From: an uncultured Candidatus Saccharibacteria bacterium
GTDB lineage: Bacteria; Patescibacteriota; Saccharimonadia; UBA4664; CAZJNH01
Assembly (NCBI GenBank): GCA_964547425.1
Contig: CAZJNH010000004.1
Location: 7,226-71,225 of the forward strand
Direction of reading: 5' to 3'
DNA: 64,000 nucleotides
Below are positions 2,226 through 45,514 of this stretch, in pieces. Both the position numbers and the translations under genes were made by a program. Position 1 is the first letter of the stretch. Every line of letters starts with the position of its first letter. The notes beneath the pieces were generated by a model. It saw only the letters and a list, made by a program, of their open reading frames with translations. It did not search any database and was not told the DNA's origin.

Positions 2226-2294
2226 CCCAAATAGTGTAGCAGATAACGAAAAACTCTAAGAACTAAGTACTAAACCCTAAGTAAGATTAAAGAT
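2226..2294. repeat. left arm of palindromic element (copy A)
   Basis: The sequence aaactctaagaactaagtactaaaccctaagtaagattaaag has its reverse complement at 2676-2742 and recurs at 12136-12269. Confidence 0.6.
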
Positions 2295-2630
2295 CTAAGA
2301 AGAATGTTTTTCGAGGATAGCACCGAAAATCCTAGTTAGACTCCGAGCCTCTTCGATCAGGGATTGGTCGGAACGTAACAGCCTTAACCAGAGAGCGCTT
2401 TCTTTTGCTTCTTTCCGACAGATCTTGATTCGCAGGATATAGTCCTTATTACTCAACGCTTCGACAGCTTCGATGAAATTGGCGGCTACGGAACCTGAGG
2501 ATCGCACCAGTTGCTTGGCATCCTCTCTCGCAACAATGGACTGAGGTTGTCTTTTAACTAGATCTCGACAATCTTGCGCGAACTTAAACGTCCTGTCTTC
2601 TAGTCCGTATTTTTGCTCGGTTGCTTGCAT
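2295..2630 (-). CDS. four-helix-bundle protein (23S rRNA intervening-sequence-protein family)
   Basis: 111 aa. The segment LVRSSGSVAANFIEA and the overall pattern match the small four-helix-bundle family often found inside intervening-sequence hairpins. It lies between the inverted arms of the element. Confidence 0.6.
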   Translation of the reverse strand: MQATEQKYGLEDRTFKFAQDCRDLVKRQPQSIVAREDAKQLVRSSGSVAANFIEAVEALSNKDYILRIKICRKEAKESALWLRLLRSDQSLIEEARSLTRIFGAILEKHSS

Positions 2631-2742
2631 TCAAGCATTTTAATTTGGTCTCCGAATGAAACTCAAGCATTACTTTAATCTTTATTCTTTGACCTTACTT
2701 AGTCCTTAGAGTTTAGTTCTTAGAGTTTGACCTGTTGCACCA
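2631..2742. repeat. right arm of palindromic element (copy A)
   Basis: The sequence ctttaatctt..acttagtccttagagtttagttcttagagttt is an imperfect reverse complement of the left arm. Confidence 0.6.
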
Positions 2743-5078: not shown

Positions 5079-7780
5079 TGAATAAATGGTTCAGCAGAGG
5101 AGTCTTGAGTGAGCCGGCCGCGGTCGTCATCTTCGCGTTTATGATTATTGCGCTGGCTGTTGGCACTGCCGCGACCAGCCAGTGGACTTACTCCCACAAA
5201 AGCGCTTACGACACCATGGCAGTTGCTGCCGCTCAGGCCGGGCTTGATCATGCCATCTTGAAGCTCAATACCGACGAGAACTACTTTTCTGGGCCTTTAG
5301 CCTCCGGCGATACTGGCACCGGAGCGGGCAATAGCGAGGTGTCCCTGGAGCAAACCCTCTCCTCCTCAGGTCAATTTACGATCACTTACATAATCGCCTC
5401 GGTGAGCGATGGTAGTGCTTACAGCCAAACAGGTTACGAAAAGAACGTAACGGTTCAAGGGCGTGTCTACCAGAACAGTACCGGTAAACTACTTTCCAAA
5501 AGGGATGTCAGCGCTGGTCTTGAAGTTGGCTCCCAAAATTTCCCTTATCAGGTCCAAGCCGGGTATGGGCATATCACACTTCAAGACATCTCCACAGTTA
5601 ATACCACAAATGCCAACGGCCGGATCTTTAGCAACGGTAGTATCCGTATAACCAACTCCGCCGTTTTAAAAGGCTACGAAGTTGGAGCTGGCGACTTCGA
5701 ATGCCCGCTCGCGGGTGGAGCGACTTACCCGACTGGCGGTGCTGACACCGGAGGCCGCTGCACAGCCGCCCAGCAAGTAGCCCTTCAGTCTTATGCTGGC
5801 TCTCCAGGTAGCAGTACTTTGCTTCATTTAGCTCATGGCGCGAGCGATATATCCGGAGGTTTTACTCCTAATCCACCAACCGATAATGTTGGAACCGTAG
5901 TCCCAATGCCTGGTCAAACAGGATACGGAACAAACTACCCCAGCTGGCCGGACGATAGCCGCAACGGTGTAATTAACTCCATCGACACAGCATTAACCAA
6001 CGCCCCTCAAAACTGCGGTAGCACCGCCAGCTGGGTTAGCTTAGGTAACATTCATATTACCAACGGGTTTAGCCTAAACGGCAGCTGTGTTCTAACCATC
6101 GGTGGCAATATTTGGGTCAATAACAATATAGCCAGTACTGCTGCAAACACCTTTATAGTTTCAGACACCGACAAGAACGGGAACCCAATCCGCCGTCCCT
6201 TGATTGTGATGGTTGATGGTGCCACAAGCTCGGGATTCTCAGCCACGGATAACATCCAGCTGTTTGATAACTTTCACGTTACGCCTAACAAGTACGGAAT
6301 GGGTATAATTTTTGAAAGTGAGTACTGTGGCAGTGGTTGTGATCCTAGTATCGGGCCGGCTATACCAAGCAGTACGTTTTATAGCTCTACTTCAAACAGA
6401 ACTATTGACATTAACACAGAGGCTACCCAGGCTGCGCCAACCAGACAGATTACTTTGGATCAATCGGTACTTTTTGCCAAATGGGGCTACGTTGGCTTTG
6501 CCAACAATTCTGGCGGCACAGACCATGCTATGGTCAGGTCGCCTTATTGCATTGACGCGGTTGGCCAAAGTGTAATATTTCCTACGGTGGTTACCGGTTC
6601 AGATCTACATACTATTGATTGCTCTTTTTCCGGCGCCAGCTTAACGGGCGCCTCATACGTCAACTTGGGTCAGCTAAGCGGCAAAGTCTTTAAGGTCGGC
6701 GGCTACAAAGAAACCGCCGGCGGGAACTACGCCACTATTAATGTCATCGATACCTCTGGCGATGCAAACGCCAATCCGGGTAACGGAGATGGTGCTGTTA
6801 CGGTTGGCACCGACGGATTCCCGGTTGGCCACTACTACGATCGAATCTTCCACTGCTCAAACATATACTGCACGTTCAAGACAAACGTGGGCGGCGGATC
6901 CTACTCAAATAGTACAGCCAATATTGGGAGTGACAACTTACCGATAACGACCGATTCGTACTCCTGGCTTGATGCGAGTCATTGTAATAACGTTTCTTGC
7001 TCGAGTAATGCTAACTCATCAGTAGATTCAGGAAGCGCTGTGGGTTACCACAGCGATACGGCTATTGGAAGCGATGGATTCCCAGTAATTGCTTATAATG
7101 ATAGCACCGGCGCTATTAAGGTTGCGCACTGCGGCAACGTGTCGTGTTCGAGCGGTAACACAATTACCCCCCTCGGAGCTGCGCTCGGGTTCTCTGTCTC
7201 AATCGCGAAGGGCAGCGATAATTTACCGGTAATCTCATACCTAGGGCCGTCAAGCACTTATCCTCTAAAAGTAATTCACTGTGGCAATGTTTTATGCTCA
7301 AGCGGAAATGTAACTACTTCCGTTGACCCCAATCCTAACGCCAGTCTCAGTGGAACAAGTATTACAATCGGTAGTGACGGTTTTCCAATCATTGCTTACT
7401 TTACCAGTGGCAACACTTTGAGGGTTGCGCATTGCGTGAACGTATCATGTTCGAGTGGAAATGGCATTGTGGCCGTTGGTTCTAATAATCTTTCATCGGA
7501 TCCGGTGATTATTATAGGTAGCGATAATTTACCGAAAATCTTCTCCTACAACTCTGCTGATAAGCAAATATTAGTTGCATATTGCACAAACGTAAGTTGT
7601 ACTACCTGGGTCCGCCCGTTCGCTGCCGTCGTAGGCGGACCACTTGATGTCAGCTCAGGATCGTGGACCCCACATATAGGGGTTGCACTTGGGAGCGAAG
7701 GTTTTCCAATACTCTTTTATTACGATAATGTCTTACGTCAGTTCAGACTTTTACGTTGCGTAACCCAAACCTGTACCTAG
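5078..7780 (+). CDS. PilX_N-type pilus-associated large protein (putative tip adhesin) with C-terminal tandem repeats
   Basis: The N-terminus has a TM helix plus an AVAAAQAGLDHA motif like the PilX N-terminal domain. The 900-aa product ends in seven repeats of about 50 aa each (…IGSDGFPVIAY…L+VAHCGNVSCSSGN…). Confidence 0.6.
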   Translation: MNKWFSRGVLSEPAAVVIFAFMIIALAVGTAATSQWTYSHKSAYDTMAVAAAQAGLDHAILKLNTDENYFSGPLASGDTGTGAGNSEVSLEQTLSSSGQFTITYIIASVSDGSAYSQTGYEKNVTVQGRVYQNSTGKLLSKRDVSAGLEVGSQNFPYQVQAGYGHITLQDISTVNTTNANGRIFSNGSIRITNSAVLKGYEVGAGDFECPLAGGATYPTGGADTGGRCTAAQQVALQSYAGSPGSSTLLHLAHGASDISGGFTPNPPTDNVGTVVPMPGQTGYGTNYPSWPDDSRNGVINSIDTALTNAPQNCGSTASWVSLGNIHITNGFSLNGSCVLTIGGNIWVNNNIASTAANTFIVSDTDKNGNPIRRPLIVMVDGATSSGFSATDNIQLFDNFHVTPNKYGMGIIFESEYCGSGCDPSIGPAIPSSTFYSSTSNRTIDINTEATQAAPTRQITLDQSVLFAKWGYVGFANNSGGTDHAMVRSPYCIDAVGQSVIFPTVVTGSDLHTIDCSFSGASLTGASYVNLGQLSGKVFKVGGYKETAGGNYATINVIDTSGDANANPGNGDGAVTVGTDGFPVGHYYDRIFHCSNIYCTFKTNVGGGSYSNSTANIGSDNLPITTDSYSWLDASHCNNVSCSSNANSSVDSGSAVGYHSDTAIGSDGFPVIAYNDSTGAIKVAHCGNVSCSSGNTITPLGAALGFSVSIAKGSDNLPVISYLGPSSTYPLKVIHCGNVLCSSGNVTTSVDPNPNASLSGTSITIGSDGFPIIAYFTSGNTLRVAHCVNVSCSSGNGIVAVGSNNLSSDPVIIIGSDNLPKIFSYNSADKQILVAYCTNVSCTTWVRPFAAVVGGPLDVSSGSWTPHIGVALGSEGFPILFYYDNVLRQFRLLRCVTQTCT
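6780..7780 (+). repeat. 7 x ~150-bp in-frame tandem repeats inside the PilX-like gene
   Basis: The HC(x)NV(S)C(S/T) motif recurs at about 6851, 6981, 7130, 7278, 7430, 7579 and 7751. Each is preceded by IGSD(G/N)(F/L)P. Confidence 0.7.
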
Positions 7781-9978: not shown

Positions 9979-10241
9979 CTTTTAAACTGAAACTCAGTTT
10001 GCCGAAGGTCGATTTCCAGCGCTACCTGGGGCCAGGAATTTCGATTCTGGTTCTGCTGGCTTTTATGTACGTGGCGTTCTTGATCCGCGGCAGCCAAAAC
10101 CCGCAGGCCGATCCGGTGTACTTAAAACAGCAGATCGACAAGTTCGACCAAACCAAGATCCAGATCAAAACCGCCCAGCTTAACGCTCTGGGCAAAACGC
10201 CGGCCTCGGTTTCGCCGGGACGCAACCCGTTTAAACCTTAG
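9975..10241 (+). CDS. small membrane protein, possible PilP-like pilus assembly component
   Basis: An 88-aa protein with one TM helix, overlapping pilO by 4 nt. Assigned by operon context only. Confidence 0.3.
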   Translation: MTFKLKLSLPKVDFQRYLGPGISILVLLAFMYVAFLIRGSQNPQADPVYLKQQIDKFDQTKIQIKTAQLNALGKTPASVSPGRNPFKP

Positions 10242-12135
10242 CCGGCTTCGCTAGATTCTTTTGCGCCCAAGTATGGTGGCGGACTATTGCCCGCGCTCCA
10301 ACGGCGCTCCACAGCTGAACCTTGTTCATCGGCCCTTCGGCCCTCGATTGGTCGTTGTAAAAGTGGGCTTTGCCGTTTTTGTGGTAGTGAAGCTCCGTCG
10401 CGCCGATTTGGTTGATGGCCGACAAACTGGCTTCGGCGGTTTTTACTAAGGTTTCTTGGAGCAGCTGGCAGGTTTTTTCGCTAAACCGACTGGACTCGAG
10501 CTGGCGGACTAGACCGGCGGTGACAAAGGCGGTTTGTTTGGTCCAGCTGACGCGGCCGTGATAATCCAGGGTGGAGTAACCGTCTTTGGCACCAACCAGC
10601 GTCGGACCGGCCGGAGTGTAAAAGTATTTTTCACTTAACAACCGGCGGCAGAAACTGTCGAGGTCAGCCTCGGTCGGTTCACCGTAAAACAGGTCGTAAG
10701 CTTCGTCTGTGTGGTTCACCTCCAGCGTGCGGTACTGCAGTTTGCCATCTTCGGATTTGATGTCGTAAAGCGCCAGCGCCATGGCGGTCTCCCCGTCCCG
10801 GTTAATAAAGCGGTAGAGGTCTTTGACCTTTGACCATTTGGCGACGAGATGGGTTAGGGTCGCTTCCGGAAAACCAAAGAACTGGGCATGCTGTTTGATC
10901 AGCTCGAGTGCCTGGGGGTAAAACACCGCGTTAACGTCGTACGGCGCGATGATCGGGTGGACCATCTTGAAGGCCCGTTCGCTGTCACGCCAGTTGCCGG
11001 CGCCGTAGTACTCTTCGCGCCGGTGGCGGCGAAACAGTTCGGGAATTTTTTTGAAGGTTATCAGGTCGTTGGCGGCGGCTTCGGATACCAGATAATGAGC
11101 TGAGCGCTTTAACCTTTCTTGGTCGTGCTCCGAGAAGTCGCTAGGCTTAATCCGCTGCAACCCCAAAATGTAGTGTGGCTCGATGTCGATCATATTGCGG
11201 ATGATGTACATTTCCTGGACCTTTTTGACCAGATCCTGCATTAGCCGGCCAAGGCGGCTTTCGCGCTCCAGCAAATCGTCGAGGCTACCAGGGAACTCAT
11301 CGGCCTGCCGGCTTTTTTCGGCCTCCAGCTCGCCGGTGATGTTTTCGTGCCAACCGATGCCGACGGGATTAACCAGCGCCAAAGCTTTGCTGTACATATA
11401 TCGCCTAACATTAAGCAGGAGGTCGCCTTCACCTAGGTCCGCGGATTCCATCCAGTCGCGAGGAAACACCGTGCCGTAGTCGAAACCGCTGGTACGGTCG
11501 TTGCGGATTAAAAAATCTATCTCCCCAGACAGCCGGTTCATCAATCCGCCGCGATCGGCCGACGAGTTCACTCGGGTTTTGGCTACCGCGTGGCTAACTT
11601 CCGGCCGCGGCGGTTTGGGGTTGTCGGTCGTCAGCTTGAAGCTGATCGGTTTAGCGGTTCGGCTTTTTAGCCAGTAGCCATGGTGTGACTGCTGGCGGTG
11701 AACCTCGACCGATTTGTCTAAAGTGATTTTAACCCCGTACCAGGTGTTTTCGTAGAACCGGCGGTAGGTTAATTCAAAACCCCGCTCGGTGGCCTCGCCG
11801 CCGACGAAGTGCGGCAAAATGGCATCCGGATGCCGCCGCATTACCTGGGCAAAGGTTGGTTTCGGTTTGCCCGGCGGCTCAATCAGCCCGCGTACTCGCA
11901 GCATCGGCCCGATAGCCGGATCGTGGAAAAAAAGTTTCGAGTGTTTGAAGCGACCGCTAATTTTGACTTCGCCGCTGGCCAGCAGTTTTACATCTTCAAC
12001 CTCAAAGTCAGCTTGGTTTAATCCAACGGTTGCAAAGTAGAGGTGGTTGTCGGGTCCGGCGATCCGCAGCTGCTCATGCTCATCGATGTCGATATAGTAG
12101 GCGGACTCTAACCAAAGATTGTCATCAATTTTCAT
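10231..12135 (-). CDS. large conserved hypothetical protein (possibly (alpha/alpha)6-barrel glycoside-hydrolase-like)
   Basis: 634 aa with no signal peptide. The fold assignment is weak and rests on the C-terminal region only. Confidence 0.3.
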   Translation of the reverse strand: MKIDDNLWLESAYYIDIDEHEQLRIAGPDNHLYFATVGLNQADFEVEDVKLLASGEVKISGRFKHSKLFFHDPAIGPMLRVRGLIEPPGKPKPTFAQVMRRHPDAILPHFVGGEATERGFELTYRRFYENTWYGVKITLDKSVEVHRQQSHHGYWLKSRTAKPISFKLTTDNPKPPRPEVSHAVAKTRVNSSADRGGLMNRLSGEIDFLIRNDRTSGFDYGTVFPRDWMESADLGEGDLLLNVRRYMYSKALALVNPVGIGWHENITGELEAEKSRQADEFPGSLDDLLERESRLGRLMQDLVKKVQEMYIIRNMIDIEPHYILGLQRIKPSDFSEHDQERLKRSAHYLVSEAAANDLITFKKIPELFRRHRREEYYGAGNWRDSERAFKMVHPIIAPYDVNAVFYPQALELIKQHAQFFGFPEATLTHLVAKWSKVKDLYRFINRDGETAMALALYDIKSEDGKLQYRTLEVNHTDEAYDLFYGEPTEADLDSFCRRLLSEKYFYTPAGPTLVGAKDGYSTLDYHGRVSWTKQTAFVTAGLVRQLESSRFSEKTCQLLQETLVKTAEASLSAINQIGATELHYHKNGKAHFYNDQSRAEGPMNKVQLWSAVGARAIVRHHTWAQKNLAKPAKV

Positions 12136-12269
12136 CGTTATACTTAGGGTAACACTTCAAACTCTAAGAACTAAACTCGAAGTACTGAGTAAGTTTCAAG
12201 AGCAAAGTTCAAAGACTTAAAACTTATATCTTTAATCTTACTTAGAGTTTAGAACTTAGCTCTTAGCTC
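12136..12269. repeat. palindromic element copy B (arms adjacent, no cargo)
   Basis: The sequence caaactctaagaactaaactcgaagtactgagtaag … ctttaatcttacttagagtttagaacttagctcttag has the same arm sequences as 2226-2742. Confidence 0.6.
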
Positions 12270-13298
12270 TTACAGCAATGAGGCTTGGTCGGAGTTTTCG
12301 CTGGGGTTTTTTAAGCCGAGGTGGCTATAGGCTTTTTTGGTGACTTTGCGGCCGCGGGGGGTGCGTTCGAGAAAACCGACTTTAAGTAAGTAAGGCTCAT
12401 AGACGTCTTCGATGGTCGAGCGCTCTTCGGAGCACAATGCGGCGATGGTGTCGACACCGACCGGACCGCCGCCATGGTTTTTGATGACAGCCTCGAGCAA
12501 ATGGCGGTCAACCTCCTCTAGACCAAGCGCGTCAATTTTGAGCAAATCGAGAGCTTTACTCGCCAAATCAGCGGTAATTTTACCGTCACCCTTCACCTGG
12601 GCGTAATCCCGGGCACGGCGGAGCAGGCGGTTGCCGACGCGGGGGGTCAGGCGGGAGCGGTCGGCCAGAAGTTTGGCCGCCTCCGGTTCGATGTCGGCTT
12701 TGAGGATCCGGGCGGAGCGGCCGATGATCTTTTCGATTTCAGCCGGTTGATAATAGTTTAGTCGATGGACCATGCCGAAACGGTCGCGCAAAGGGCCGGA
12801 GATCGCCCCGGCTTGAGTTGTGGCACCGATGATGCTGAATTTTGGCAGGTCAAGGCGCAAGGACTTAGCCGAAGGGCCTTTGCCGAGCACCAGGTCGAGG
12901 CTGAAATCTTCCATCGCCGGATAGAGAATTTCCTCGACCGTTTTGGGCAAACGGTGGATTTCGTCGATGAATAAAATTTGGCCTTCCTCGATGCTGGTTA
13001 AAATCGAGGCCAGATCGCCGGCGCGCTCGATAGCGGGGCCGGAGGTAACTTTTATTGGGGTATTCATTTCGTTGGCGACGACGTGGGCGAGAGTAGTTTT
13101 ACCTAAGCCCGGTGGGCCGTACAGCAAAACGTGGTCGACCGGTTCCCCCCGTCCTTTTGCGGCAGCAATTGCCAGCTGGAGGTTGTCTTTGATGGTGTCC
13201 TGCCCAATGTAATCTTTGAAAGTATGCGGCCGCAGGGTTTCTTCGAGCTGGACCTCGCCGACTTCGATTTCTCCGGGCGTTGAGATACGCTCAATCAT
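12270..13298 (-). CDS. ruvB: Holliday junction branch migration helicase RuvB
   Basis: AAA+ protein with Walker [10 protein letters not shown], and RuvB-wide similarity including the C-terminal winged helix. Confidence 0.95.
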
Positions 13299-13843
13299 TT
13301 GGCTAAGCTCCTTAGAGCCTGCTTGATCCGCTCTTTTTCGTCGGAGACCGAAGCCGGTATTGAGGATGCCGCTTCGGCGGCCTGGGAAGGTGAGTAGCCG
13401 AGACCGACTAAGGCTTGATAAGTGTCATCGGTCGCCGAAGCGCTGGGAGTCAGTTTGCCCTTTAGATCAACGATCACCCGCTCCGCGGTTTTTTTGCCAA
13501 CTCCGACTACACCGGCAAACAGCTCGGCGCTGCCGCTTTGGACCGCTTGCATCACCTTGTCCGGCGAGCCGGCTGAGAGAATCGAAAGCGCCGATTTGGG
13601 ACCAACACCACTGACGGACAACAGTTTCATAAACAGCTCCTTAGCTTCGTAACTCGAAAAGCCGAAGAGAGAGTAGGCGTCTTCTTTGATGTTTTCGTAA
13701 ATATAAAAGCTGGCGCGGTCGCCAACTTTGGTTTCCTGCCAGTCCGGTAGGGTGAGGTAAATTTCATACTCAATCGAGCCGGCTTCAACCAGGGCCACCC
13801 CCGGCAGCTTTTCGGTCACTTCCCCCTTAATCCGTCCTATCAT
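13295..13843 (-). CDS. ruvA: Holliday junction DNA helicase subunit RuvA
   Basis: The N-terminus is MIGRIKGEV. The HhH motifs ([10 protein letters not shown]) and length are typical. Confidence 0.9.
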
Positions 13844-18406: not shown

Positions 18407-18470
18407 CCCTCCGGGTTCTCGCCTCGGTGTCCTCCCAAGAAAAATTCCGAGACAAGCTCGGAGTTTTTCT

Positions 18471-18546
18471 TGGTGGGCCGTCCGGGGCTCGAACCCGGGA
18501 CACGAAGCTTAAAAGGCTCCTGCTCTACCAACTGAGCTAACGGCCC
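18471..18546 (-). tRNA. tRNA-Lys(UUU)
   Basis: GGGCCGTTAGCTCAGTTGGTAGAGCAGGAGCCTTTTAAGCTTCGTGTCCCGGGTTCGAGCCCCGGACGGCCCACCA folds as a cloverleaf with CCA encoded. Confidence 0.85.
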
Positions 18547-33226: not shown

Positions 33227-33301
33227 TGGTGGCTGTGGGTGGATTTGAACCACCGACCAACGGCTTATGAGTCCGCTGCTCTACCACTGAGCTACACAGC
33301 C
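33227..33301 (-). tRNA. tRNA-Met(CAU), elongator type
   Basis: GGCTGTGTAGCTCAGTGGTAGAGCAGCGGACTCATAAGCCGTTGGTCGGTGGTTCAAATCCACCCACAGCCACCA. It has U4-A69 as in tRNA-Met, with one A31·G39 mismatch in the anticodon stem. Confidence 0.75.
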
Positions 33302-33467
33302 GCACTGGCGGTCGGGTTGGATGGTGGCTCCGCCACCTCCCTGCGGTGCTCGGTAAGAACTAATCAATCTTACTTCTTACCTGCGCTCCTCGTCCACCGA
33401 ACCTGCGGTTCTTCATCCAACCAATCACTAAACAAGGCCCACATCCGGATTAACCGGCTGCGGGCCT

Positions 33468-33542
33468 TGGTAGCGGGGGTTGGATTCGAACCAACGACCT
33501 CCGGGTTATGAGCCCGACGAGCTGCCACTGCTCTACCCCGCG
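33468..33542 (-). tRNA. initiator tRNA-fMet(CAU)
   Basis: CGCGGGGTAGAGCAGTGGCAGCTCGTCGGGCTCATAACCCGGAGGTCGTTGGTTCGAATCCAACCCCCGCTACCA. It shows an unpaired 1:72 (C·U), A11:U24, and three G-C pairs closing the anticodon stem. It is near-identical to E. coli tRNA-fMet. Confidence 0.85.
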
Positions 33543-33587
33543 GCACAACATAGCAATATAGCACTTTATATCTGGAGGGTCAACGCG

Positions 33588-33968
33588 TCAGCCAAAGAGG
33601 AAGTGCCACCACTGTACCCAGTTAGCCGTTTTGGAGGTTTTTGTTTTAGCGGCCTCGGCTGGCGTTTGAGTGGCGGAGATTTTATCCCTCGGCAATATAA
33701 CTAGGGTTTCGCCGGGTTTTTGCAAGCCCAGTTTAGCCCTGGCAGCCTTTTCTTTATAGGCGTCGGTTTTGTAATACTCAATCTGATAGCCCAGCTCGGC
33801 GTTGTCTTCCTTTAGCTGGGAGACATCTCTTTGTAATTGCCCAATCTGCCCCTGAAGACTGGCGTTGTTGCGCACGGTCTGGACTAAAATGATTGCTAAG
33901 TAGATCGAAGATATTACTCCAGCTAAGCTAACAAACTTGTTGACCACGCTCTGATTTGGTTTCACCAC
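33588..33968 (-). CDS. septum formation initiator family protein (FtsB/DivIC-like)
   Basis: A single TM helix followed by a coiled coil (LQGQIGQLQRDVSQLKEDNAELGYQIEYYK). Confidence 0.6.
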   Translation of the reverse strand: MVKPNQSVVNKFVSLAGVISSIYLAIILVQTVRNNASLQGQIGQLQRDVSQLKEDNAELGYQIEYYKTDAYKEKAARAKLGLQKPGETLVILPRDKISATQTPAEAAKTKTSKTANWVQWWHFLFG

Positions 33969-34037
33969 TTAATTCTAACTTAAAACCATAAGCTTCTATA
34001 TTAAAGAAGTTGTTTGCTAAACTTAAGCCACCGCTGT

Positions 34038-34113
34038 GGGCCGGTAGCTCAGCGGTTAGAGCAGCGGGCTCATAACCTGTTGGTCGTAGGTTCGAATCCT
34101 ACCCGGCCCACCA
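34038..34113 (+). tRNA. tRNA-Ile2 (CAU to lysidine), or second tRNA-Met
   Basis: GGGCCGGTAGCTCAGCGGTTAGAGCAGCGGGCTCATAACCTGTTGGTCGTAGGTTCGAATCCTACCCGGCCCACCA. The C4-G69 and C5-G68 acceptor pairs are those preferred by TilS. Confidence 0.7.
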
Positions 34114-45180: not shown

Positions 45181-45484
45181 TGGCTCCGGGGGCGAGATTC
45201 GAACTCGCGACCAATTGATTACACCGATCCCACTGTTTCCAATGAGGGTGGACTATATCATCATCCGCCGGTGGGCGGAGCGGGGCGCTTCCTCTTACGA
45301 GTACTCTCTTGCGAGATAGTCTCTGAACCTTACCCTCGCCTTTAAGAAAAAGACGAGGGGCTTGGCTGCTGATTACCTTATTCTAGGAACTTAGGTTTCC
45401 AGCAATTCACCCCGTTTTTCAAACCCGATTACTCGGGCAAGCTGCCTTTTGACAGTCAACTGCTCTACCGCTGAGCTACCCCGG
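45181..45484 (-). tRNA. tRNA-Asn(GUU) interrupted by a group I intron after nt 36
   Basis: Joining exons 45451-45484 and 45181-45221 gives TCCGGGGTAGCTCAGCGGTAGAGCAGTTGACTGT|TAATCAATTGGTCGCGAGTTCGAATCTCGCCCCCGGAGCCA. This has U1-A72, G73 and the loop CUGUUAA, as in E. coli tRNA-Asn. A rho-independent terminator lies at 45140-45180 on the minus strand. Confidence 0.75.
45222..45450 (-). ncRNA. group I self-splicing intron (229 nt)
   Basis: The 5' exon ends in U and the intron ends in G. P1 pairs the exon CUGU with intron GCAG. The P (AAUUGCUGGAAAC), Q (AAUCAGCAGCC), R (GUUCAGAGACUA) and S (GAUAUAGUCC) elements are all present, and GACUA pairs with UAGUC to form P7. Confidence 0.75.
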
Positions 45485-45514
45485 AACGCCGAGTTATTTT
45501 ATCTTTTTTACGGC

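Follow-up and report, generated by a model that had tools for sequence, protein, structure and literature searches.

Intervening sequences (IVSs) that bear an open reading frame (ORF) interrupt the 23S rRNA genes of Leptospira, Coxiella burnetii, Xanthomonas and Brucella, and insertions are also found in the 16S and 23S rRNA genes of bacteria of the candidate phyla radiation (CPR) (PMC4990558; PMC11270868), where ORFs for intervening-sequence proteins (IVPs) have been described within the rRNA insertions (PMC11270868). The stem of an rRNA IVS is cut by RNase III, after which the rRNA stays fragmented, and in the Coxiella 23S IVS tandem GACAGAT heptamers lie upstream of the S23p gene, the RNase III cut being located at the first repeat (PMC4990558). 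The S23p ORF has been suspected to be "a component required for mobility" with no function given, and the elements have stood unexplained since 1993 (PMC4990558). Here we describe a palindromic cassette built from 7-nt repeats in a 64,000-nt stretch of DNA from an uncultured Candidatus Saccharibacteria bacterium (the window; approximately 52% GC), where one copy encloses a gene for a four-helix-bundle (4HB) protein and a second copy has no ORF. Both loci are copies of one lineage of palindromic heptamer-repeat cassette, which we interpret, with moderate confidence, as an IVS-type, horizontally spread element that resides in the spacers between protein genes, outside rRNA, and has an ORF-less derivative.

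The likeness of the cassette to the rRNA IVSs is evident at several levels. First, its protein belongs to the same S23p/23S_rRNA_IVP family (PF05635), and the element falls in the same size range of approximately 430–520 nt. Next, the ORF lies inside a long inverted-repeat stem, in sense to the host transcript, with tandem heptamers upstream. Finally, both have a more AT-rich composition than their host, both are inferred to have been acquired horizontally, and the ORF is deletable (PMC4990558; PMC11270868). A link to rRNA IVSs had been proposed in the original prediction, made from the sequence alone, and it is upheld by the shared protein family and by the heptamers upstream of the Coxiella S23p gene (PMC4990558). 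In contrast to the rRNA IVSs, the window copies and about 80 related loci lie in protein-gene spacers and not in rRNA helices 25 or 45, an ORF-less copy of the same lineage occurs elsewhere in the same genome, and strong purifying selection acts on the window protein, the Coxiella ORF having been judged decaying and untranslated. The related loci come from a family survey with one genome per species, in which at least 596 4HB loci were confirmed; the best 80, encoding proteins 50–60% identical to the window 4HB protein and comprising 79 distinct elements, were analysed in detail, and comparison loci from other assemblies are designated here by L-numbers. No clustered rRNA motifs or rRNA operon were found within 10 kb in any of the approximately 80 sampled loci, and the upstream gene is co-oriented with the 4HB gene in 72 of 78 cases (92%) and the downstream gene in 59 of 70, with median gaps of 75 and 80 nt. 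The companion statement that 4HB genes typically reside in rRNA hairpins therefore does not apply to this subfamily. In the window an Rfam scan detected no rRNA, and both copies sit between protein genes. Because they do not lie in rRNA, the window copies are not filed as IVSs; we regard them as an IVS-type element in another niche.

Two copies of one cassette in the window

The two copies and the genes that border the ORF-less one are as follows.

2251–2728, minus strand: cargo copy, whole element with 5′ arm, leader, 4HB ORF and 3′ arm (inverted repeat, RNA fold, homology to the ORF-less copy)
2672–2728, minus strand: 5′ arm of the cargo copy in gene sense (inverted repeat, shared k-mers, blastn)
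2631–2671, minus strand: leader between the 5′ arm and the ATG of the cargo copy (conserved with L106)
2295–2630, minus strand: 4HB ORF of 111 aa, 23S_rRNA_IVP/S23p/Avd-like family (PF05635, TIGR02436, AlphaFold model)
2251–2307, minus strand: 3′ arm of the cargo copy in gene sense, ...CTTAGATCTTTAATCTTACTTAGGGTTTAGTACTTAGTTCTTAGAGTTT, overlapping the last four codons and the stop codon of the ORF (inverted repeat, shared 18-mer, blastn)
12159–12273, plus strand: ORF-less copy, with a 5′ half at 12159–12214 and a 3′ half at 12216–12273 (inverted repeat, homology to the cargo copy, syntenic relatives)
12270–13298, minus strand: ruvB
10231–12135, minus strand: gene for a 634-aa protein of no assigned function (gene X)

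The homology of the two loci is apparent from exact matches, from alignment and from the order of the shared segments. The 15-mer AACTCTAAGAACTAA is found exactly at 2252 (plus), 2713 (minus) and 12160 (plus), and with up to three mismatches it has 8 matches against 1.3 expected, a number reached in none of 100 shuffles; the 18-mer CTAAGTAAGATTAAAGAT is exact at 2277 (plus) and 12228 (minus), with 0.02 occurrences expected. Exact 15-, 18- and 20-mers are common to both loci and occur nowhere else in the 64 kb, and shuffled sequences never reach the 15- and 18-mer counts. When the hairpin is compared with the window by blastn, the significant matches are the cargo arms alone (44 nt at 91%, E 1e-10, and 37 nt at 92%, E 7e-9), all others having E values of at least 0.4 except for a 16-nt match (E 0.002) that also lies inside the cargo element. 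The hairpin, read on its plus strand, is collinear with the minus, gene-sense strand of the cargo copy, as the alignment follows the 5′ arm up to ...AAAG, jumps to the TTAAAA that precedes the ATG and then continues in the post-stop sequence CTTATATCTTTAATCTTACTTAG; on the outer side, the similarity of the cargo 5′ arm to the ORF-less copy extends to approximately 2737. The ORF-less junction, ACTTAAAA joined to CTTATATCTTTAATC, connects the leader to the post-stop sequence (the post-stop side being also given as CTTATATC), and its ORF-precise nature is clearest in comparison with L106, the locus of the closest protein relative, which is 72% identical to the window 4HB protein. The hairpin at 12.2 kb is the same element, from which precisely the ORF and a portion of the leader are missing.

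The arms themselves are arrays of phased 7-nt units. In gene sense the 5′ arm of the cargo copy reads AAACT CTAAGAA CTAAACT CTAAGGA CTAAGTA AGGTCAA AGAATAA AGATTAA AG, and the arms of both copies consist of about four CTAAGNN units followed by three to four AGNNNAA units, with both 14-nt and 7-nt phasing. The cargo arms (2251–2307 and 2672–2728) are 57 nt long and 75% complementary, with a 19-nt core that is 95% complementary, and those of the ORF-less copy (12164–12214 and 12216–12266) are 51 nt long and 71% complementary, with a best core of 21 nt at 86%. The ORF-less copy is a non-coding sequence of approximately 115 nt with inverted terminal arms, and the imperfect palindrome lies at 12136–12269, in the spacer between ruvB and gene X. 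In the predicted whole-element RNA fold the 57-nt arms enclose the ORF of the cargo copy; the folding z-scores against shuffled sequences are −1.5 and −1.4 for the ORF-less copy and −2.2 for the cargo copy, with a DNA z-score of −2.0. The significance of the folding energies is weak, and the case rests on homology and comparative data.

Much of the original prediction is recovered in this comparison. The arm-built hairpin of about 130 bp between ruvB and the 10231–12135 gene is present, the same arms flank the 4HB ORF between the GT-C and the pilin-like gene, and the collinearity and the ORF-precise junction bear out the idea of one element in two states, with and without cargo. The caveat that the arm motifs might be generic AT-rich sequence fails in the 64-kb window, where the matches are confined to the two elements. 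The folding that had been proposed is obtained as far as the closure of the ORF by the arms is concerned, and the energies are modest. The phased heptamer arrays, which are the defining feature of the arms, had been overlooked.

A coincidental similarity of AT-rich, low-complexity spacers, or of ordinary terminators, can be considered next to impossible. The arms are indeed AT-rich and repetitive and the folding z-scores are weak, yet the shared exact 15-, 18- and 20-mers, the blastn E values and the collinear order of the segments contradict coincidence, as do the same arms around the closest homologue in another assembly, and the k-mer, blastn and L106 arm evidence together refute it. The arms are also not background composition, because the window has approximately 52% GC while they are AT-rich. 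A scan of the cargo locus for promoters and terminators gave background levels, and no terminator-like G+C stem with a T-run was seen at the arms. At gathering score Rfam has no match for the elements, and a relaxed search returned chance matches to generic hairpin and miRNA models.

Further details of the two loci concern the leader and the surroundings. The leader motif TAATGCTTG...GGAGA...TTAAAAT is kept between the cargo copy and L106. The 4HB start codon forms the loop of a 6-bp local hairpin, TGCTTG-AATG-CAAGCA (2622–2637); this local palindrome, TGCTTGCATTCAAGCA, is not conserved in L106, and another local palindrome, ACCTGGTGCAACAGGT, lies at 2730–2745, immediately outside the cargo 5′ arm. 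The downstream GT-C gene has the same orientation as the cargo copy. The ORF-less copy is antisense to ruvB and to the downstream gene, its plus strand matching the gene-sense strand of the cargo copy, and its last heptamer overlaps the ruvB stop codon (12270–12272). The neighbour labels GT-C/PMT_2 and RuvB were confirmed by profile search, and the 'pilA' ORF has no Pfam match and a pilin-type N-terminus, FTLLELLIVIVIIGILA.

The four-helix-bundle protein and its inverted heptamer arms across phyla

The window 4HB protein is a clear member of its family, scoring 39.9 bits against PF05635 (curated cut-off 33.8 bits) and 56.7 bits against TIGR02436 (cut-off 24 bits). An AlphaFold model built from a 32-sequence alignment has a predicted local distance difference test (pLDDT) value of 93.2 and predicts helices at residues 10–26, 31–55, 60–83 and 88–109. 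The top Foldseek matches of the model are 2RLD (TM 0.77–0.80) and 2GSC, both stand-alone pentamers, of which 2RLD is deposited as five chains and is also matched by the sequence profile (E 8e-16). From the motif GxxRxxxSxxxNxxE reported as conserved in the family (PMC3936711), the residues R42-x3-S46-x3-N50-x2-E53 are invariant in the 32 sequences, and the leading Gly is replaced by Gln39 in the subfamily of the window protein. Both the arms and the protein are under purifying selection, because between the window and L106 the arms are 72% (5′) and 83% (3′) identical and the protein has a proportion of nonsynonymous differences (pN) of 0.18, with synonymous sites saturated and third codon positions at conserved residues 45% identical. 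The family counts thousands of relatives, with 10,149 clusters at 50% identity (E ≤ 1e-3), and no relative of the window 4HB protein was found in PADLOC, PHROGs, IMG/VR viral contigs or GenBank phages; a phage vector or a known defence role for the cassette is not supported.

The protein also invites comparison with Avd, which has a homologous fold, a basic and pentameric four-helix bundle, and binds a structured RNA in which the template is flanked by an upstream and a downstream segment (10.1101/2023.10.23.563531; PMC10053308). That the 4HB gene is the Avd subunit of a diversity-generating retroelement, with the repeats as part of the system, nevertheless appears highly improbable. Avd does resemble PF05635 (PMC10053308), and the model aligns weakly to the Avd structures 4DWL and 8UB7 (E 0.6–0.9), the stand-alone pentamers 2RLD and 2GSC being far closer structural matches. 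Neither a reverse transcriptase nor a pair of template and variable repeats accompanies the gene here or at the inspected homologous loci, which essentially refutes this explanation, and the neighbours are pilins, a glycosyltransferase, recR, trxB and coxL. The lack of PADLOC and PHROG matches and of viral relatives points in the same direction.

Inverted heptamer arms are a general feature of the elements. The best 80 loci come from more than 10 phyla, among them Patescibacteria, Desulfobacterota, Bacteroidota, Verrucomicrobiota, Planctomycetota, Acidobacteriota, Chloroflexota, Nitrospirota, Omnitrophota and, within the Proteobacteria, Gammaproteobacteria, and in 64 of the 79 elements (81%) the complementarity of the flanks exceeds the 99th percentile of 1189 control ORFs of the same loci, with medians of 17 for the elements and 7 for the controls. 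The strongest 'controls' are RAYT-like transposases with REP-like repeats (REP, repetitive extragenic palindromic; RAYT, REP-associated tyrosine transposase), a small GIY-YIG gene, divergent 4HB genes with other heptamers such as GTATCAC and AAGTAGC, and host genes bracketed by the arms of adjacent heptamer elements (L069, L024); the screen is validated because the RAYT and the divergent 4HB genes surfaced among the controls. The GIY-YIG gene, at 13317–13604 of L075, encodes a 95-aa nuclease and lies in inverted repeats (cattgcgagg...gaagcaatc / gattgcttcg...ctcgcaatg), being another small gene within a palindrome.

A full copy consists of a 5′ array of approximately four to eight phased 7-nt units, a short leader, a 4HB gene of about 110 aa and a reverse-complement 3′ array. 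Elements of the most frequent type have a 5′ arm of (NNNCTAA)n that closes with AAACAAATTCAAATG and a complementary 3′ arm, TTTGAATTTGTTTAGG... The modal phased chain has four heptamer cores followed by an AAACAAA unit; in 18 of the 49 elements with this unit it stands 12 nt from the ATG, more often than at any other distance. The core varies between elements (CTAAA, CGAAA, ACAAA or CCAAA) and agrees between the two arms of one element, the arm-class pairs being CTAA/CTAA in 25 cases, CGAA/CGAA in 19, ACAA/ACAA in 5 and CCAA/CCAA in 3. Pairing of an arm with its own partner scores 16.9 against 12.0 with the arms of other elements, and within the same class the advantage is 2.2 (p=0.011).

The elements are wedged into operon spacers such as ybaB-[4HB]-recR, grx-[4HB]-trxB and coxS-[4HB]-coxL. 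Distant 4HB subfamilies in cultured organisms likewise lie within heptamer arrays, as on a Bernardetia plasmid and on pANACY.01 of Anabaena cylindrica PCC 7122 (L108), where the 4HB gene (155585–155932) sits between cas2 and cas1 on the opposite strand, surrounded by AGTAAAA heptamer arrays with outer arms of 60 nt and an inner pair. IVP genes wedged between cas genes have been noted (PMC3936711), and the 4HB family has been reported in cas loci (PMC3936711; PMC10910872); the arrangement in Anabaena suggests that these CRISPR-cas associations reflect insertions into operon spacers and not function.

ORF-less copies with the same arms, leader and trailer are also found beyond the window, in L018, L052, L081, L086 and L103, as well as in L057 (two copies) and in L024 (four copies in 20 kb). 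The four L024 copies share one leader remnant, and the two L057 copies resemble each other. In L024 (1552–10568) and L057 (9740–10656) a 4HB ORF has a complete ORF-less hairpin on each side rather than being enclosed in a single one, the upstream arm being T-rich and the downstream arm A-rich, a layout that could have arisen by tandem insertion or rearrangement. In the JGI metagenomes an 18-mer of the window 5′ arm has 9 matches, mostly to solitary direct heptamer arrays in unrelated genomes and in one case to an ORF-less hairpin (L103), and an exact 23-mer of the 3′ arm has none.

Co-variation of the protein with its heptamer

The protein was compared with its heptamer in 32 elements of the CTAAA class and 26 of the CGAAA class, the ACAAA and CCAAA classes being too few. 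One alignment column, 145 (Glu106 in the window protein, 4–5 residues from the C-terminus), carries most of the information on the heptamer class, with a mutual information of 0.71 against a maximum of 0.52 in 300 label permutations. The residue is Glu or otherwise non-basic in 30 of the 32 CTAAA elements and Arg, Lys or His in 20 of the 26 CGAAA elements (Fisher p=3e-8). The class signal is limited to columns 138, 145 and 148 (i, i+7, i+10), which form one helix face, and other C-terminal columns carry none. The link is one at the protein level, as Arg is encoded by both CGN and AGR codons, and it survives control for GC content (likelihood-ratio test p=4.5e-7). By the rest of the protein the nearest neighbour is of the same class in just 36 of 58 cases, the classes not being separated by the core phylogeny, and the residue type switches in 17 of the 22 cross-class nearest-neighbour pairs, as between L051 (Arg) and L049 (Thr) at 79% core identity. 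GC content, overlap of the codon with the heptamer, core phylogeny and a C-terminal linkage block were each tested, and none explains the link between residue and heptamer. The co-variation suggests that the 4HB protein recognises the heptamer, with Glu or Thr as opposed to Arg, Lys or His tracking T as opposed to G in the core. A charge switch on one helix face would predict direct, reprogrammable recognition of a 7-nt unit by a protein of about 110 aa.

Heptamer arrays are known from other settings, most closely as the tandem arrays of the cyanobacterial STRR (short tandemly repeated repetitive) type and the TAACTGA arrays of Beggiatoaceae, Cyanobacteria and Bacteroidetes, which also consist of phased intergenic 7-nt units and often end a few nt before a start codon. 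Across phyla the TAACTGA arrays occur patchily, and it has been suspected that a protein binds them (PMC4679880). These arrays have been described as direct repeats without a gene, in contrast to the inverted pairs of the cassette, which surround or replace a 4HB gene. In one spacer of an unrelated metagenome contig, TAACTGA-type and AAACTCT-type arrays adjoin (L104, approximately 6030–6260). Long arrays also follow 4HB genes in L087 (downstream of 10345), as (GGTTTAG/GGTTTAGTATTTAG)n, similar to TTTAGGG repeats of the telomere type, and in L028 (downstream of 4801), as (TTTGTGA)n, so that expansion of heptamer arms into tandem arrays of great length is evidently possible.

The same evidence could be read in terms of regulation, with the heptamer arrays as binding sites of the 4HB pentamer acting as a host-level post-transcriptional regulator, similar to TRAP or CsrA at repeated motifs near start codons, its own sites serving autoregulation and the solitary arrays and hairpins forming a regulon and not relics. 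The residue-heptamer co-variation on one helix face would fit such a role, and so would the modal chain of four cores and an AAACAAA unit if read by a pentamer as in the five chains of 2RLD. Further points in its favour are the conservation of the arm sequence above synonymous sites, the missing G:U bias together with an own-arm pairing that is weakly better than that between elements, the solitary direct arrays of the same heptamers upstream of unrelated genes, and the proposal of TAACTGA arrays abutting start codons as regulator sites (PMC4679880). However, a host regulator should be inherited vertically and in single copy, yet proteins of more than 50% identity are spread over more than 10 phyla, different subfamilies replace each other at one site, and copies are wedged into the unrelated operons ybaB-recR, grx-trxB, coxS-coxL and cas2-cas1, while the ORF-less copy separates ruvB from a gene whose orthologues lack such a neighbour. 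We regard a host regulator as rather unlikely for these reasons; the reading is compatible with a mobile, autoregulating element and in part complements the IVS-type cassette that we favour.

A broader and decidedly speculative extension may be sketched, in which the cassettes would form a large cross-phylum class of mobile elements without a transposase. Their sole gene product, an Avd-like pentameric 4HB protein, would read approximately five phased heptamers with one subunit for each, and a few residues at the C-terminal face of helix 4 would determine its sequence specificity (Glu or Thr for C-T-AAA, Arg, Lys or His for C-G-AAA). The protein-repeat complex, and not the stem alone, would maintain or move the element, and a polymerase, reverse transcriptase or recombinase, either of the host or acting in trans, might be recruited to this end. 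The rRNA IVSs, the IVP genes found in cas operons and a large number of orphan heptamer arrays would all stem from this one system. We give this extension a low probability.

Occupied and empty sites, and a possible mechanism

Comparison of the two window sites with their counterparts in relatives indicates that related genomes differ in the presence, absence and type of the element at the same sites. The 634-aa protein X has orthologues of 62–63% identity in three assemblies, with the synteny yebC-ruvC-ruvA-ruvB-X-pilO, and the spacer between ruvB and X is 134 nt long in the window, where L092 and L093 have 18 nt and L094 has 73 nt that are unrelated in sequence; the ORF-less hairpin next to ruvB thus appears as a presence/absence polymorphism. 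The 18-nt empty spacers read GCTAAGCTAGAAG / tttGCTACTCTATAAGTA and GCTACTCTATAAG / gtttGCTAAGCTAGAAGA and are heptamer-like, GCTAAG being found in them, which hints at a possible target preference. CTAAG, which is also the repeat unit, is present at both outer edges of the ORF-less copy.

The cargo site tells a similar story. L106 has CTAAG-type arms as in the window in a different gene context, and in L096, where the GT-C protein is 55% identical, another 4HB subfamily (QIQRAARSIAANITEG type) lies between the pilin and GT-C genes within CCAGAAT-type arms of 26 nt that are 85% complementary. At the site upstream of the GT-C gene in L095 there is no ORF, and arm remnants like those of L096 are kept. 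By these sequence comparisons the site upstream of the GT-C gene is a hot spot that has been occupied by at least two element types. In the ybaB-recR spacer of the Saccharimonadia-type assemblies L003, L004 and L107, the 4HB cassettes encode proteins 66–70% identical to the window protein, and this suggests long vertical retention at some sites beside turnover elsewhere.

L095 bears also on the origin of the ORF-less form, which could be the in-situ wreck of a full cassette beside ruvB whose ORF was removed by slippage or by a deletion spanning its inverted arms, so that only full copies would move. What is missing at the junction is precisely the stretch between the complementary leader and trailer, as would be expected from deletion across a palindrome, the window holds a single ORF-less copy, and L095 retains a remnant in place where its relative L096 has a full copy. 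On the other hand, the four L024 copies in 20 kb share a leader remnant and the two in L057 are alike, which is easier to explain by copying of the ORF-less form, and the window ORF-less copy is antisense as compared with the 92% of full copies in sense, which would demand a rare antisense insertion. In-situ decay is accordingly a possible origin, and a less probable one than a horizontally spread cassette whose ORF-less derivative belongs to the same element.

Two further classes of palindromic elements are of interest for comparison. The REP elements and bacterial interspersed mosaic elements (BIMEs) with their RAYT genes also combine a short gene in inverted palindromes with gene-less palindromes dispersed in intergenic spacers, and differ in that the cargo here is a 4HB protein (PF05635 alone) with no HUH/Y1 motifs and no known catalytic activity and that the window arms are phased heptamer arrays instead of one imperfect palindrome. 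IS200/RAYT-like Y1 genes with their own REP-like palindromes, unrelated to the heptamer arms, are found at L079 (3202–3744), L067 (1332–2036) and L013 (1389–2078, minus) in genomes that also have 4HB cassettes. The ORF-less copy in turn resembles a miniature inverted-repeat transposable element (MITE) in being small, non-coding, AT-rich and intergenic, with terminal inverted repeats, and collinear with the ends of a longer gene-bearing element; in contrast to a MITE, its parent cassette has no recognisable transposase, there is no readable target duplication, and one copy is present in 64 kb. The cassette is probably mobile, as the original prediction had held in describing a mobile, MITE-like element: the short spacers of relatives, the arms of L106 in another context and the hot spot speak for mobility, and what is not supported is the MITE part of the description, which would imply that a transposase mobilises the element in trans, with no transposase known or seen, no readable target duplication and a single ORF-less copy in the 64 kb.

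A mechanism consistent with these observations can be proposed. The cassette would spread horizontally and insert in short spacers between genes, where heptamer-like sequences such as GCTAAG may serve as targets. Having no promoter of its own, it would be expressed by read-through from the host operon, and in the transcript the arms would pair into a long AU-rich duplex. By analogy with the rRNA IVSs, an RNase III-like cleavage of the duplex may free the cassette RNA and leave the flanking RNA unharmed, which would make the insertion nearly neutral. The 4HB protein, presumably as a pentamer, is envisaged to bind the heptamers, one unit per subunit, and this binding may serve autoregulation and/or the maintenance or mobility of the element. 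ORF-less copies would arise by deletion across the paired arms and either persist in place or be propagated in trans.

Several observations weigh against the IVS-type mobile cassette or parts of its mechanism. First, no mobility enzyme is encoded in the cassette according to a Pfam/TIGRFAM profile search, or has been identified, no close copies are present in the JGI metagenomes, and one ORF-less copy stands alone in the 64 kb. Next, the empty-site relatives are distant (62–65% protein identity), so that insertion is indistinguishable from precise loss, and no target-site duplication can be read, because the empty spacers are heptamer-like and the arms are themselves CTAAG repeats. Furthermore, the stems are imperfect (70–75% complementary) with energies merely 1.4–2.2 standard deviations better than shuffles, own-arm pairing barely exceeds same-class pairing and would fit two inverted binding-site arrays equally well, and the arm mismatches show no G:U excess (118 G:U against 136 A:C, p=0.29). 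Because of the last point, the sense RNA is not claimed as the selected form as opposed to DNA or a protein-binding array, and the arrays are at least as likely to act at the DNA level or in protein binding as to serve purely as an RNA stem. Finally, the residue-heptamer association could partly reflect the linkage of the C-terminal codons to the adjacent 3′ arm.

If the IVS-type cassette is accepted, the rRNA IVSs would be recast as one particular case within a far larger family, which normally resides between protein genes, with and without its gene, and turns over at hot spots. The searchable literature, which leaves most subscription journals outside and may therefore miss an earlier description, holds no account of inverted heptamer arms around non-rRNA members, of ORF-less derivatives or of residue-repeat co-variation. 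The heptamer arrays of the 4HB family may be caught by repeat-based searches.

Apart from the cassette, three features of the window tRNA genes were noticed. A group I intron (RF00028, 100.5 bits, 45229–45468) lies within 45183–45506 (minus) and interrupts a tRNA gene missed by ARAGORN and by the Rfam tRNA model; the exons, ...GGGGTAGCTCAGCGGTAGAGCAGTTGACT before and TGTAATCAATTGGTCGCGAGTTCGAATCTCGCCCCCGGAGCCA after the intron, would join to an anticodon loop CU-UGU-AA and point to a tRNA-Thr(UGU), with the splice sites placed by eye. Three tRNA-Met(CAT) genes, two on the minus and one on the plus strand, lie within 900 nt at 33227–34113 and presumably represent initiator, elongator and/or tRNA-Ile2 precursors. 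At 18411–18498, an inverted repeat of 41 nt with a 5-nt loop overlaps the 3′ part of tRNA-Lys(TTT) (18471–18546, minus) and could be a partial duplication of the tRNA.

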